A DNA stretch of 64,000 nucleotides from contig CAYXNJ010000003.1 in NCBI GenBank assembly GCA_964466465.1, forward strand, positions 960 through 64,959. Direction: 5' to 3'. A program made the translations under genes and the position numbers. Positions 1 to 4,770 of the stretch are shown here, piece by piece. Position 1 is the first letter of the stretch. Every line of letters starts with the position of its first letter. The notes below the pieces were generated by a model. It was not told where the DNA came from. It did not search any database and saw nothing but the letters and a program-made list of their open reading frames with translations. The DNA comes from an uncultured Sulfurospirillum sp. (GTDB lineage: Bacteria > Campylobacterota > Campylobacteria > Campylobacterales > Sulfurospirillaceae).

Positions 1-527
1 ATCTCTTCCGATGGTTTCATTTTTGAAAAACGAACTCGTTCATAACACGCCCAACAACGATCCGTTAAAAATACACGATGCTTTGGACAAGCATTATAAA
101 AAAGATACCGCCATTGCTTACGCCAATACGGTTGTGAATCTTCAGCTAGACACTTTGGACAAAACATCAGTCCATAGTGTGTTCGCTTATCTTTGAGTTT
201 TCGAATTTGCTTTGGCGGGTATAGGGTGACACTATCTCCCTCAAAAAGATACCCTTCTTCGCTGCGTAGGCTTAATGACTGGAGTGTTTGCACATTCAAG
301 TGGCATTTGGAGGCAAGCTGGCTTATCAATGCCTTAGTGTCATTAAAATCTAAGTCTATACGACTAAGTGCACTGCCATCATGTTTGATAAACAAAGAAA
401 GGAAGGTTGTTAGAGAATAGCCATGAGCGAAAGCCGTTCGTGTTAACCATGAACTCAACAGTTCATTAGGATAAGGATGAGGAATGATTAAGCAATCATA
501 CCCATCAACCCATCCCTTACGTCTCAT
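1..527 (-). CDS. tniQ: TniQ-family target-selector protein, N-terminal 175 aa (truncated by window edge; not in ORF track)
   Basis: Manual translation from ATG at 527 (ATGA overlap with tnsC stop): MRRKGWVDGYDCLIIPHPYPNELLSSWLTRTAFAHG...FCPKCLAEDSQPYWRKQWRYLFYNACPKHRVFLTDRCWAC. Shows the TniQ E-x-LSSWL-x-R motif plus CxxC/CxxH/CxxC zinc ligands; no stop codon down to base 3. Confidence 0.92.
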   Translation of the reverse strand, partial: MRRKGWVDGYDCLIIPHPYPNELLSSWLTRTAFAHGYSLTTFLSLFIKHDGSALSRIDLDFNDTKALISQLASKCHLNVQTLQSLSLRSEEGYLFEGDSVTLYPPKQIRKLKDKRTHYGLMFCPKCLAEDSQPYWRKQWRYLFYNACPKHRVFLTDRCWACYERVRFSKMKPSEE

Positions 528-1393
528 AATTTTGGTAAATACTCAATCTCAGCAGCAGTTATTCTTTCGCGACCCGATTTAATCGCTTTTACAGCTGCTT
601 TTTTCATTAAATTGACAGTCTTACCAATTAATCCTTCTGATTCTTGGTAAATAATATCCACTAAAGGTAGATTATCGGCTATATTTGATGCTTTCTTAAG
701 CGGTAAACAACTCTCATACGAAGCAAGGAATGAACGAAATTTTCTATTATTGCTCCAACGCGGTAGTTCTACTGATGGGAAGCGCGATGCAATTTCATCA
801 TTAATTGTTAAAGCAGAAAAGGCATCGCGTGTTCCTGCAAGAATAATAGCAAGAGAGAGTTTATTGCTGATGTGTTTTAAATCATTGATAAACGTTCGTT
901 GTTTATTGAGGTTGCCTGTTAATGCGCTATGAATTTCATCAATTAATATCATTTTTGTATTAAGTTTACGCAGATAATGTTCTACTAAGCGCGCTTTTTC
1001 CATAGCTTTTTCACTGACTTTATGTGGAACACATAATTCATCGAGGATGAGAGAGTAGAGTCTACCTTCATCGGGTATGGATGGGGCTTCAAAATAGATA
1101 ATTGGAATTTCATGTACTGATTCTTCTTTAGCATTTATTGTTTCAAAGGAGGCTTTATGCTTAGTATAAAATTTTTTTAAAATAGCTGTTTTACCATTAT
1201 TATAATCACTATAGACCAATAAGCCTTCATTTCTCAATTGACTTGGTTCATGAAACTTATCTTCTAATATTTCAAGAAGTTTCATTGCCGAAGCATAAGT
1301 AATCCACTGGTCTTTTTTACAATATGCTACTCTTTCTGCATCACTTTTTTCTAAATAGCTTAGGGCCGCTTTTGTGAGACGTCGACTACTCAT
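524..1393 (-). CDS. tnsC: TnsC/TniB-family AAA+ ATPase
   Basis: Walker A-like SDYNNGKT, Walker B MILIDEIH, TniB-like N-terminus (ERVAYCKKDQWITY); directly downstream of tnsB. Confidence 0.9.
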   Translation of the reverse strand: MSSRRLTKAALSYLEKSDAERVAYCKKDQWITYASAMKLLEILEDKFHEPSQLRNEGLLVYSDYNNGKTAILKKFYTKHKASFETINAKEESVHEIPIIYFEAPSIPDEGRLYSLILDELCVPHKVSEKAMEKARLVEHYLRKLNTKMILIDEIHSALTGNLNKQRTFINDLKHISNKLSLAIILAGTRDAFSALTINDEIASRFPSVELPRWSNNRKFRSFLASYESCLPLKKASNIADNLPLVDIIYQESEGLIGKTVNLMKKAAVKAIKSGRERITAAEIEYLPKL

Positions 1394-3285
1394 AATACTT
1401 CATCCACAGGGTAATAATCATACCCTTCTCTATCATCATCATCTATTTCTTGAATAATCAGCTTTTCATCACGAGATATTGGCTCTTTTTTCAAGATTTT
1501 CTCTTCGTACTCAAGTATCTTTTTCGTATGTTGCTTTGAACTATTACGCCTTAGTGTAGAACGCTTTTCGCGTTTTGCTTTTTCAACATAGGTGCTCAAT
1601 CTTTCATAACTTCTAAAAATATCATGCATCTCTAGTTCTCGCCCTATAACTTCTTTTTTTGCATCAGCAATAGATTTTCGAAGCTCTGATAAATTGATTG
1701 CTGGTTTTCGAATATCACTATAGGGGACAATAATATAATCATTAATATCTGGATCATACACATATAATTTACTAATATCTCTAGGGTCTCTTCGGAACAT
1801 GACAGATTTTGTGTGAATTTTAGCAGAGAGTTTTTTATATTCCGAAGGAACAATCCACTTCCGAAGCGTTTCAGAAAAATACGTAATGTAATCAATGGTA
1901 ATGCCATTTTTCTGAACAGTGCGCTCAAACGCTGGTAAAAGAGCCATGCGAAGCTTTATTGTATTTGCAGGGGCTGATGGCAAAAATGGAATTGTTCCAT
2001 CACCCACACCTAAAAACGCTTGGTAAAACTTTTCCTCAGGGCTCATTCCAAGCGAACTGTGTTCAGTTTTATGATAAATATTAATCACAAAATCAAGATA
2101 CCATTGCTCTAGTTCTTGAATTGTCATGCTTGCATGATATTCAGAATCATAGGTACCTTTTTGTTTTATGTTGGAGAATGTGGTTCCTGGCAATTGATGG
2201 ACTGCTTTCATATGCGTTTCAATCACACGTTCAATCATGCCACCGTATTCAGGGTGTGCCACAGGTCGGTATTGATTTTCGATGCTGTATTCTTGACAAA
2301 ACTTCTCTAATGAGGTTGAACGAAACTCTTTGGCATTATCCATGTGTACTTTGCGAGGCAAGCCATACACTGGCCATTCTCCTTGAATGTTGTGGTAATG
2401 CAGAAGATCTTCTTTGGGTAAAATCGCATTCAGTAAGCATTGTCCTACACTAAAAAAATTAATTGATTCTAATGAAATATAAAAACCGTAAATCATTCGG
2501 CTATAAACATCAATTGCAACCGTAATATTAGGTCTGCCAATCGTTTCTCTTGTAATTTCATCTACGAGCATAACATCAACTTTTGTGTGATCAATCTGAA
2601 TAATATCTAAGGGCATTTTGACTTTTGGGAATTTTCCAGGCATTCCTCTTGTATCGCGCACACTAACATTTTTACGATATTTGGCAACTAATTTTGGATG
2701 TATTTTTTTTAGACGTGTACGAATAGTATTATCAGTAGGTGGAGTTTGATTGGCATAGCGACACTTTTCAACTATTTTTTGATAGATAACTGAAATAGGA
2801 TATTGTTGCTCATCCAAATAAAAATCTTCAAACACAGACTCAATAATTGCCTCAACAGATTTATCTAGGCGTCCTTTCAATTTTCCACCACAATTTTTAT
2901 ATGCCGTTGCCAATGAACTCACTGTTCCATAGGTTTCATATTTCTCTAGCCATCGATAAATAGTAGCCACCCCTTTGCTATGCTTATCGGCGACTGCTTG
3001 TATATCTTGTGTTGATCGTTTTTCAATATCAAGTAGTGGTTTTATAATATGATATCTCTCTAGTGCCTTTTTGTATTCTTTGTCATCCAAATCAACTAGA
3101 TGCTCAACCTTTGAAGTTGCATTTTTGGATTCTTTGATAAGTGTATTCACCTTAACAATGCACTCTTTATAAGGCTTTTCAACAGATTTCAAAAGCACTT
3201 CATTAAATGATGAATACGCTTTAATCGTGTAAAGTTTATCTTGATGAAACACGCTTGTGCCAATTTTAAAGCTAATAACGTTCAT
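1390..3285 (-). CDS. tnsB: TnsB/TniA Mu-family DDE transposase
   Basis: 631 aa; IQIDHT, HMDNAKEF and GGMIER DDE motifs; HTH-like region (VATIYRWL); C-terminal RDPRDIS Mu-transposase motif. Confidence 0.93.
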   Translation of the reverse strand: MNVISFKIGTSVFHQDKLYTIKAYSSFNEVLLKSVEKPYKECIVKVNTLIKESKNATSKVEHLVDLDDKEYKKALERYHIIKPLLDIEKRSTQDIQAVADKHSKGVATIYRWLEKYETYGTVSSLATAYKNCGGKLKGRLDKSVEAIIESVFEDFYLDEQQYPISVIYQKIVEKCRYANQTPPTDNTIRTRLKKIHPKLVAKYRKNVSVRDTRGMPGKFPKVKMPLDIIQIDHTKVDVMLVDEITRETIGRPNITVAIDVYSRMIYGFYISLESINFFSVGQCLLNAILPKEDLLHYHNIQGEWPVYGLPRKVHMDNAKEFRSTSLEKFCQEYSIENQYRPVAHPEYGGMIERVIETHMKAVHQLPGTTFSNIKQKGTYDSEYHASMTIQELEQWYLDFVINIYHKTEHSSLGMSPEEKFYQAFLGVGDGTIPFLPSAPANTIKLRMALLPAFERTVQKNGITIDYITYFSETLRKWIVPSEYKKLSAKIHTKSVMFRRDPRDISKLYVYDPDINDYIIVPYSDIRKPAINLSELRKSIADAKKEVIGRELEMHDIFRSYERLSTYVEKAKREKRSTLRRNSSKQHTKKILEYEEKILKKEPISRDEKLIIQEIDDDDREGYDYYPVDEVL

Positions 3286-3940
3286 GATTTATCCAAACTA
3301 GTGAATTCATTGTCAATTCATCTTGATAAAAATCTGTGCATAATTTTCCATTGGACACTAGGCTCCAAATAGCATTTGCAACTTGCAAATATTCCATCTT
3401 GGATTGAGCAATCAAGTTAGCTAATTGAAAAGCAGTCATAGGTTCTTTTGCAAAATCCAAAATTTTTTCATCATTTCTAGTATCTAATGATTGTGTTTTA
3501 TAGCGATATAAGAAGTCAAGATTTTCAATATAACTTTTTGGAAAAGTTTCATCAGTGTAGAGTATAAATTCCATTCCCATATATTCTACGGATGCTTGAA
3601 TACTTTTAAACTTTTGTTCAAATTTTTCTTTGTCTTTATTGATTTCAGTAAGATATTTCACTTCAACGATAGTCTCTTTTTTCAAAGTATCTTTGCAATA
3701 TTTAATGAGGCAATCAGCACTGTATGTTCGTATACTACCATCATAATCAATTTTAAGTTGTGGCTGTTCTATGTAAGTTTCTACTGAGTTGTCAAATTCT
3801 AGCGTCAAGAAGAGACTTCTTTCCAGAAGTGACTCAAAAGCTATAGAGGATTTATTTTTTACACTTGGGAAAGATCCTGTAACAGAGCGATAATTTTTTG
3901 TTATTTTACGCTGAGAAAATACTTTATGATCTGCTTCCAT
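3272..3940 (-). CDS. tnsA: TnsA endonuclease (PD-(D/E)xK fold)
   Basis: RKITKNYRSVTG, FESLLE, EQP, YSADCLI and VEVKY motifs; start moved to ATG 3940, which follows AAGGAG (the track start at 4012 is a TTG inside a TnsB site). Confidence 0.88.
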   Translation of the reverse strand: MEADHKVFSQRKITKNYRSVTGSFPSVKNKSSIAFESLLERSLFLTLEFDNSVETYIEQPQLKIDYDGSIRTYSADCLIKYCKDTLKKETIVEVKYLTEINKDKEKFEQKFKSIQASVEYMGMEFILYTDETFPKSYIENLDFLYRYKTQSLDTRNDEKILDFAKEPMTAFQLANLIAQSKMEYLQVANAIWSLVSNGKLCTDFYQDELTMNSLVWINHERY

Positions 3941-3964: not shown

Positions 3965-3973
3965 ATTATACCA
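3965..3973 (-). promoter_or_regulatory. Extended -10 (TGnTATAAT) for the tns operon
   Basis: TGGTATAAT on the minus strand just upstream of the tnsA RBS. Confidence 0.55.
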
Positions 3974-4004: not shown

Positions 4005-4153
4005 ATTATCAAACTTTAATGCAAATATATTAGACTATTTTTTTTTAAACAAACCTGCTTTACTTACAATTGTTAATCTCAGCCAATATAAAAATAGTGT
4101 ACAATGGAACAAAATATGAAAATATAGATTATCAAACTTTATTTATATCAACA
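4005..4153 (-). repeat. Transposon end: TGTTGATA terminus plus two TnsB-binding repeats
   Basis: Plus-strand ATTATCAAACTTTA occurs at 4005-4018 and 4128-4141; the outer copy is followed by TTTATATCAACA ending at 4153. Confidence 0.8.
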
Positions 4154-4263
4154 TATTTAATAAAAAATAAAATTGTAACAAATAGTTAATGACGTACATC
4201 ATAGATTCTTAATAAAAGATGCGATAAAATTGTCACAAATTAAACTACACGAAAGGAAAAAGA

Positions 4264-4770
4264 ATGGCTGTTGAACAAAGCAGAAGAGACTTTATCGGCA
4301 TGGCATTCGGCGGTTTTGCAGCGGCGGGTGGCGTAGTAGCCCTTGGCGCTATGAAAAAGACTTGGGATCCACTTCCAAGTGTACAATCTGCTGGATTCAT
4401 CACCGTTGACCTCTCTCCAATGAAAGAAGGGGAAGTCCAAACGATCCAATGGAGGGGCAAACCTATTTTCATTTTGAAGAAAAGTGCAGATATGCAAAAG
4501 AATGAGAAACGTGACGTTGTTGCGGGTAAGAACAGCTATACCGTTGTCATTGGTCTTTGCACACACCTTGGATGTATTCCAACATGGACACCTGCGACCA
4601 AGCAATTCAAATGCGCCTGTCATGGTGGCGAGTTTGACGCTAGTGGCGTAAACACTTTCGGTCCTCCTCCACGCCCTATGGATATTCCTCCATTTAAAAT
4701 TGATGGTGAGAAACTTGTCCTTGGTGAAGAAGGTCCTGAGTATAAAAAGCTAACAGCTAAAAAAGCGTAA
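4264..4770 (+). CDS. petA: Rieske Fe-S subunit of menaquinol:cytochrome c reductase
   Basis: Tat signal SRRDF; CTHLGC and CACHG Rieske motifs. Confidence 0.97.
   Translation: MAVEQSRRDFIGMAFGGFAAAGGVVALGAMKKTWDPLPSVQSAGFITVDLSPMKEGEVQTIQWRGKPIFILKKSADMQKNEKRDVVAGKNSYTVVIGLCTHLGCIPTWTPATKQFKCACHGGEFDASGVNTFGPPPRPMDIPPFKIDGEKLVLGEEGPEYKKLTAKKA

Follow-up and report, generated by a model that had tools for sequence, protein, structure and literature searches.

A Tn7-like transposon in mnmG of an uncultured Sulfurospirillum and the terminus beside its tnsA gene

An intact element and its boundaries

Positions 4005 to 4153 of the window, the whole 64,000-nucleotide stretch of uncultured Sulfurospirillum sp. 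DNA that was analysed, are very probably the tnsA-side terminus of an intact Tn7-like transposon targeting mnmG. The boundary at 4153/4154, the 5-bp duplication and the element length of 17,190 bp are established by the far end of the element together with empty sites. Read on the minus strand from T4153, the element opens with the octamer TGTTGATA (4153-4146), followed by TAAA and by the 14-mer TAAAGTTTGATAAT at 4141-4128. A second exact copy of this 14-mer lies 123 bp further in, at 4018-4005. The features of this end and of its flanks are as follows.

4146-4153, minus strand: terminal 8 bp TGTTGATA, from the sequence and from the empty sites L012, L016 and L018, which join the flanks exactly here
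4153/4154: boundary between element and host, from the empty-site junctions and from contig breaks in other metagenomes
4154-4158, plus strand: copy of the TATTT target-site duplication, present as a single TATTT in the empty sites
L005 6348-6352, plus strand: second copy of the TATTT duplication, directly outside the far end
4123-4146, minus strand: predicted terminal TnsB-type site, core TAAAGTTTGATAAT at 4141-4128, 21.5 bits
4000-4023, minus strand: predicted inner TnsB-type site, core at 4018-4005, 27.5 bits, the top score of the window
4159-4263, plus strand: host DNA, comprising the last three mnmG codons and stop (AAT AAA AAA TAA, 4159-4170) and then the intact petA leader

The far end lies beyond the start of the window on the same metagenome contig and was reached by exact-protein look-ups in public assemblies. 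TnsC led to a 326-kb metagenome contig (L002), whose sequence was extended by a second look-up (L005). L005 has the orientation of the window, and window coordinates correspond to L005 coordinates minus 19389. The far end was absent within 10 kb of tnsC and was found on a longer walk along the contig. On the plus strand, L005 6348-6420 reads AAAA TATTT and then, inside the element, TGTAAAAAGAAA TAAAGTTTGAGAAT gaccaa CAAAGTTTGAGAAT aaacgtaa TAAAGTTTGAGAAT. The terminus at this end begins TGTAAAAA, and its sites occupy nt 13-26, 33-46 and 55-68 counted from the terminus, forming a contiguous array with spacings of 20-22 bp. The element accordingly spans L005 6353 to window position 4153.

Empty sites were found by an exact look-up of the Rieske protein, in contigs of three other samples. 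In all three, mnmG is followed directly by the petA leader, and the junction reads ...GTTTATATTAAAA TATTT AATAAAAAATAA AATTGTAAC... Because these empty junctions carry one TATTT and none of 4005-4153, the boundary and the 5-bp duplication are proven. An earlier note on this DNA had read the terminus and the two 14-mers directly from the sequence, placed the boundary at 4153/4154, proposed TATTT (4154-4158) as the duplication and predicted a far end made of TATTT, TGT and several sites on the plus strand. These proposals have held: the empty-site contigs join the flanks at that very position, TATTT stands outside both ends and once in each empty site, and L005 presents TATTT, TGTAAAAAGAAA and three sites. 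The two findings that the note had named as speaking against it, a distal end lacking the TATTT flank or matching repeats and strains lacking tns genes but retaining 4005-4153, are disposed of by the same contigs.

Further public assemblies lend the boundary additional support: the junction is whole in one run and represented by its petA half only in most. Contigs break exactly at 4153 in two metagenome runs. One wastewater run contains the empty form at a depth of about 40 beside the occupied form at a depth of about 2, and two metatranscriptome runs cover only the petA half of the stretch.

Arrangement of the TnsB-type sites

Sites were scored with a 24-nt weight matrix derived from 55 non-redundant sites of relatives, from which the element's own sites had been excluded. 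When both strands of the window were scanned (about 128,000 positions), the two proposed sites ranked first and second, with 27.5 and 21.5 bits, followed by a next-best score of 13.0; the 99.99th percentile of the window scores was 7.3 bits. The exact 14-mer TAAAGTTTGATAAT has no other occurrence in the 64-kb window, and judged by these scores the observation of the two copies is real and far beyond chance. They occupy nt 13-26 and 136-149 of the element, counted from the terminus. The core of the terminal site begins 12 nt after the first base of the terminus, an offset that recurs at the far end and in relatives.

Between the terminus and tnsA, no third TnsB-type site scoring above 4 bits with the relatives' matrix was found on the same strand. 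The close relatives L112, L113 and L115 carry a terminal site and an inner pair, spaced 20-21 bp apart, just upstream of tnsA. In L114, the inner site abuts the tnsA ribosome-binding site, while L116 has a terminal site only, about 80 bp upstream of tnsA; a site just upstream of tnsA is thereby shared with four of the five close relatives. The position at which the second member of the inner pair would lie reaches less than 4 bits in the present copy, and by its sequence this second member has decayed. The resulting tnsA end, with two sites instead of the three of relatives, could be weakened.

The first eight bases of the two termini have only TGT and two more bases in common, and the octamer TGTTGATA belongs to the tnsA-side end alone, being found neither at the far end nor at the tnsA-side ends of close relatives, which begin TGTCATAT. 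In Tn7, the 8-bp termini are identical at both ends, unlike the termini described here. The right-end octamer of the Tn6677-derived VchCAST is identical to TGTTGATA, the last 20 nt of that end being given as TGTTGATACAACCATAAAAT (PMC12969935), so that the earlier note had given the TGTTGAT start of Tn6677 correctly. As close relatives have TGTCATAT and the far end has TGTAAAAA, the match with Tn6677 may be coincidental.

The compact terminus of L105, from a Sulfurovum MAG, reads TCAAAGAAACAA where its relatives have TGYAARAAACAA; the G of the invariant TG has apparently been lost, and this would be expected to disable that end. About 60 loci of Bacillota (L020-L099) contain pairs of the core AAAGWTYGAKAAT at a spacing of about 20 nt. 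One of them, in Lysinibacillus sphaericus (L032 3280-3350), displays TGT followed by three sites with the AAAGWTYGAKAAT core and resembles the compact end of a Tn7-like element. This site core may be common to distant Tn7-like lineages.

Insertion in mnmG and identity of the two ends

The insertion is situated inside mnmG (GIDA domains), three codons before the stop. It converts the tail of the protein from ...YIKIFNKK* to ...YIKIFCKKK*, the final codons being supplied by the transposon end. To the right of the element lie the petABC genes for the Rieske protein, cytochrome b and cytochrome c, of which petA, the Rieske gene, starts at 4264, 110 bp from the tnsA-side end.

The wider family was found by a pattern scan for site pairs, using one genome per species. 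The scan revealed compact ends in Arcobacteraceae, Sulfuricurvum, Sulfurimonas and other Campylobacterota, and in 8 of 10 aligned compact ends the flank was the 3' part of mnmG. A search with the protein encoded at the far end added twelve more loci; mnmG, a three-site compact end and the gene for that protein occur together in nine of the ten whose upstream region is intact. Across 14 elements from several genera of Campylobacterota, the compact three-site end always lies beside mnmG, and in every one of them the terminus is located 53 or 54 nt downstream of the I-S-G-I-T-P-A-A codons of this gene. The flank on the tnsA side differs from element to element: it is the petA leader in the window, a HAD hydrolase gene in Sulfurovum (L112), a C5 DNA methylase gene in L001/L113 and an RTX-like gene in L116.

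Since the register on the mnmG side is fixed while the tnsA-side flank varies, the target lies in mnmG and not in petA, and sequence comparison thus places the targeting determinant in mnmG. Argued from position, TniQ most likely reads a conserved stretch of mnmG about 34-57 nt from the insertion point. As the compact end adjoins the target mnmG, the end in the window is classified by its sequence as the target-distal, Tn7L-like end, with a terminal site and an inner site more than 100 bp in. By the same sequence-based classification, the far end, with its three contiguous sites, is the target-proximal, Tn7R-like end.

Sulfurimonas sp. RIFOXYB12_FULL_35_9 contains a second copy of about 17.6 kb (L100/L114, contig NZ_MICC01000049.1) besides its mnmG copy (L101). 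This second copy interrupts the start of a small gene, carries its own 5-bp duplication, CTATG, and is accompanied by a phage-type integrase, a YafQ toxin and an HTH_36 gene. It could represent a TnsE-pathway insertion into mobile DNA, a reading that its surroundings fit without proving it. A Sulfuricurvum MAG (NZ_JASJOW010000001.1) harbours a 2.6-kb mini-element at the mnmG site (L060 1379-3962) with three small genes and no tns genes. It is bounded by a compact end with three sites and, on the other side, by an inverted end, TGTTATTTACAA TAAAGTTTGATAAT; the flanking pentamers, TGGCA and GGCAG, do not match. The mini-element may have arisen by deletion or be a non-autonomous derivative. In a Sulfurimonas MAG (JBAZDX01), contigs 8 and 13 (L051 and L071) open with an identical compact end, flanked by mnmG in one and by unrelated AT-rich DNA in the other, and this pair could reflect either two copies or variation between strains that the assembler merged.

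The petA leader itself contains a 17-nt direct repeat, ATAAAATTGT(A/C)ACAAAT, at 4167-4183 and 4224-4240, with starts 57 nt apart. Each repeat copy includes the near-palindrome TTGTnACAA. As the empty sites carry the repeat too, it is host DNA, and we regard it as a candidate operator for a regulator of petABC.

Transposition genes and cargo

The transposition genes within the window are all encoded on the minus strand.

3272-3940, minus strand: tnsA, 222 aa from the ATG at 3940 (Pfam PF08722, E 1.2e-09)
1390-3285, minus strand: tnsB, 631 aa, DDE transposase (Pfam Mu-transpos_C and rve)
524-1393, minus strand: tnsC, 289 aa, TniB-type AAA+ regulator (Pfam PF05621, E 4.8e-56)
1-527, minus strand: tniQ, first 175 of 392 codons in the window (Pfam PF06527, E about 1e-27)

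The rve match of tnsB is below its gathering score. TnsB is 61-70% identical to relatives in Sulfurovum, Sulfurimonas and Arcobacter. The tnsC and tniQ genes overlap by 4 nt, and the remainder of tniQ, the cargo, tnsE and the far end precede the start of the window; the full tniQ was read in L002 and L005. Public gene calls and the list of open reading frames place the tnsA start at a TTG further upstream (244/246 aa), and the inner site would then fall within the gene. Because a strong AAGGAG precedes the ATG at 3940 and the N-termini of the relatives' TnsA proteins match, the 222-aa start is the better call.

Downstream of tniQ follow open reading frames of 65 and 61 aa, a DUF6161 gene, a gene whose product has no match and a gene for a GmrSD-like protein. 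As a whole, the anti-phage defence cargo measures about 9 kb and comprises DndC, DndD, DndE, a GmrSD/HEC-06-like protein and an AbiZ-like DUF6161 protein, as well as two metallophosphatases, one of which matches PDC-S10, and several proteins without a match. The gene lists of the whole 17.2 kb contain neither cas genes nor a CRISPR array, and no TnsF or integrase-like protein follows tniQ in this element or in L001. By its gene content, the element is not a CRISPR-associated transposon.

A putative remote TnsE homologue at the far end

The first gene inside the far end encodes a protein of 563 aa and starts 66 nt after the new mnmG stop. The protein is kept at the same place in nine intact relatives, with 40-54% identity. 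Searches of Pfam, NCBIfam, PADLOC and PDB sequences gave no match to it, also when thresholds were permissive. An AlphaFold2 model computed from nine sequences reached a mean pLDDT of 58.9 overall and of about 85 for residues 415-563. When this model was compared with the PDB by Foldseek, seven matches were obtained at a probability of 1.00, all of them TnsE C-terminal domains (5d17, 5d16, 9d5l), with target TM values of 0.62-0.64 over about 161 columns; the next match had an E value of 0.4. We therefore consider the protein a putative remote homologue of TnsE, an assignment resting on one domain of a mediocre model.

The 66 nt between the new mnmG stop and the start of tnsE are filled by the three TnsB-type sites (L005 6353-6434). 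Neither a promoter nor a clear ribosome-binding site is visible in these 66 nt, and tnsE may depend on read-through from mnmG.

The tnsA promoter and possible autoregulation

At the opposite end, the region between the inner site and tnsA contains the following putative signals.

3965-3973, minus strand: extended -10 TGGTATAAT of the likely tnsA promoter, from the sequence only
3958-3953, minus strand: tnsA ribosome-binding site AAGGAG, from the sequence

The core of the inner site ends 34 nt upstream of the -10 hexamer of tnsA. A consensus promoter scan, which requires a -35, did not report the extended -10 TGGTATAAT and gave only a weak TTGATA/TATTTT pair, the -35 of which lies inside the inner site. 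This TTGATA could act as a -35-like element. In Tn7, TnsB represses the tnsAB promoter. Given the position of the inner site, autoregulation of the tns promoter by TnsB is plausible in the present element; what speaks for it is the site just upstream of tnsA that four of the five close relatives share.

Proposed mechanism and alternative readings

From the observed boundary, duplication, site arrays, fixed family register and gene content, we infer how the proteins would act on these sites and how they might be regulated. TnsB is expected to bind the TAAAGTTTGAKAAT sites, two of them spaced at the tnsA end and three contiguous at the far end. TnsA and TnsB would then cut at the TGT...ACA termini, and joining to a 5-bp staggered cut in the target would generate the TATTT duplication. 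TniQ would read the ISGITPAA codons of mnmG in the way that TnsD reads glmS in Tn7. On the inner site, 34 nt upstream of the tnsA -10, TnsB may repress its own operon.

This account has to be weighed against other readings of the same DNA. The target might instead be the leader or promoter of petA, with the tnsA-side end as a target-proximal right end in the canonical Tn7 arrangement. The tnsA-side end of Tn7 does adjoin glmS, the corresponding end here is only 110 bp from the start of petA, and one Acinetobacter relative has a tnsA-side end with three sites in about 100 bp that abuts the 3' end of a gene. Among the close relatives, however, the same end is flanked by a HAD hydrolase, a C5 methylase or an RTX-like gene, whereas the other end adjoins mnmG in the same register in 14 elements; moreover, the compact contiguous array, which marks the target-proximal end of Tn7, sits on the mnmG side. 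With a variable flank on one side and a constant register on the other, we rejected a petA-side target, which we consider highly unlikely. Even harder to credit is the suggestion that the 14-mers serve a regulator of the host or the element as operators, or that they repeat by chance in AT-rich DNA, with the true terminus set by some other sequence. If up to two mismatches are allowed, the 14-mer is indeed not rarer in the window than expected by chance (3 found, 1.76 expected), but its exact copies occur nowhere else in the window, and the relatives' matrix ranks both places best of 128,000 positions. Three more sites form a direct array in inverted orientation at the opposite end, and the same motif recurs with the 12-nt offset at both ends of relatives in several genera.

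A third alternative accepts the ends and the duplication as real, yet takes the element for a fixed, dead relic that has become immobile and whose inner site has no regulatory role. The tnsA end lacks one of the three sites of relatives, and every occupied copy found is at the same site, both of which would suit a relic. On the other hand, the five transposition genes have all kept their full length, both occupied and empty forms of the site occur between samples and within them in flanks that are otherwise near-identical, and a member of the family occupies a second site in DNA resembling a mobile element, with a fresh 5-bp duplication. We regard immobility of the element as improbable, and an intact Tn7-like transposon targeting mnmG remains the strongly favoured reading.

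Comparison with known systems

The features by which Tn7-like elements can be recognised from sequence are all present: TnsA with TnsB, TnsC/TniB and TniQ in one operon, TGT ends, a 5-bp duplication, end sites that are directly repeated and unequally arranged, and an insertion that keeps one orientation and a fixed distance from a conserved sequence (+53/+54 nt, counted from the ISGITPAA codons, n=14). With Tn7, the element shares a heteromeric transposase made of TnsA and TnsB, the regulator TnsC and a selector with a TniQ domain, together with termini that start TGT and, at each end, several direct TnsB-type sites, one end being compact and the other spaced. Also alike are the length of the duplication, the fixed distance from conserved 3' codons of a housekeeping gene and a TnsE-like second selector. 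In contrast to Tn7, the target is mnmG, and the insertion falls within the last codons of the gene and not after its stop. TnsC is of the short TniB type (289 aa), and the selector has 392 aa. Furthermore, tnsE is positioned at the opposite end, outside the tns operon, and the operon itself adjoins the spaced target-distal end, opposite to its place in Tn7.

The placement of tnsE at the far end has a precedent, as Tn6022-like elements have been reported to encode remote homologues of TnsE close to their left end, at a distance from the core genes (Faure et al. 2023, PMC10293859). In the Tn6022 type (AbaR backbone, comM), TnsC is likewise of the TniB type, TniQ is short, and the very divergent TnsE is encoded well away from the core. 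The Tn6022 type differs in possessing TnsF, an inactivated tyrosine recombinase needed with TniQ, which is missing here, and in inserting in comM instead of mnmG. In the Acinetobacter relative, a single case that serves for contrast only, the site motif is AAAGAACTATGCGACAA, compared with AAAGTTTGAKAAT here. The TnsB proteins of the Acinetobacter relatives are about 36% identical, and a plasmid collection yielded distant TnsB relatives only, with at most 40% identity. Apart from the octamer, the resemblance to Tn6677/VchCAST, which is of type I-F3, extends to the tnsABC and tniQ core; unlike that system, the present element has no cas genes or CRISPR array, and its targeting would be guided by protein.

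Implications for the family

Among the papers searched, none describes mnmG as a Tn7-like target or names it together with Tn7-like elements, and two broad surveys mention neither mnmG, gidA nor Campylobacterota. With the present element, mnmG joins the housekeeping genes that serve as safe landing sites. For this Tn7-like family, which is widespread among the sulfur-oxidising Campylobacterota, base-pair-exact ends, a duplication and a site motif are now available, and these allow the defence cargo to be delimited in genomes and a mini-element to be built. As the transposition genes stand beside the target-distal end, an automatic rule equating the right end with the tnsA side and the target side would mislabel the element.

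We tentatively put forward a broader combined reading, more doubtful than not, of an undescribed mnmG-using Tn7-like lineage of Campylobacterota with an inverted gene block, in which TnsB occupancy gates both selectors. If it is true, transcription from mnmG would enter tnsE through the three TnsB sites, tnsE lacking room for a promoter of its own. TnsB would then gate tnsE by a roadblock at the compact end and tnsABC-tniQ via the inner site at the other.
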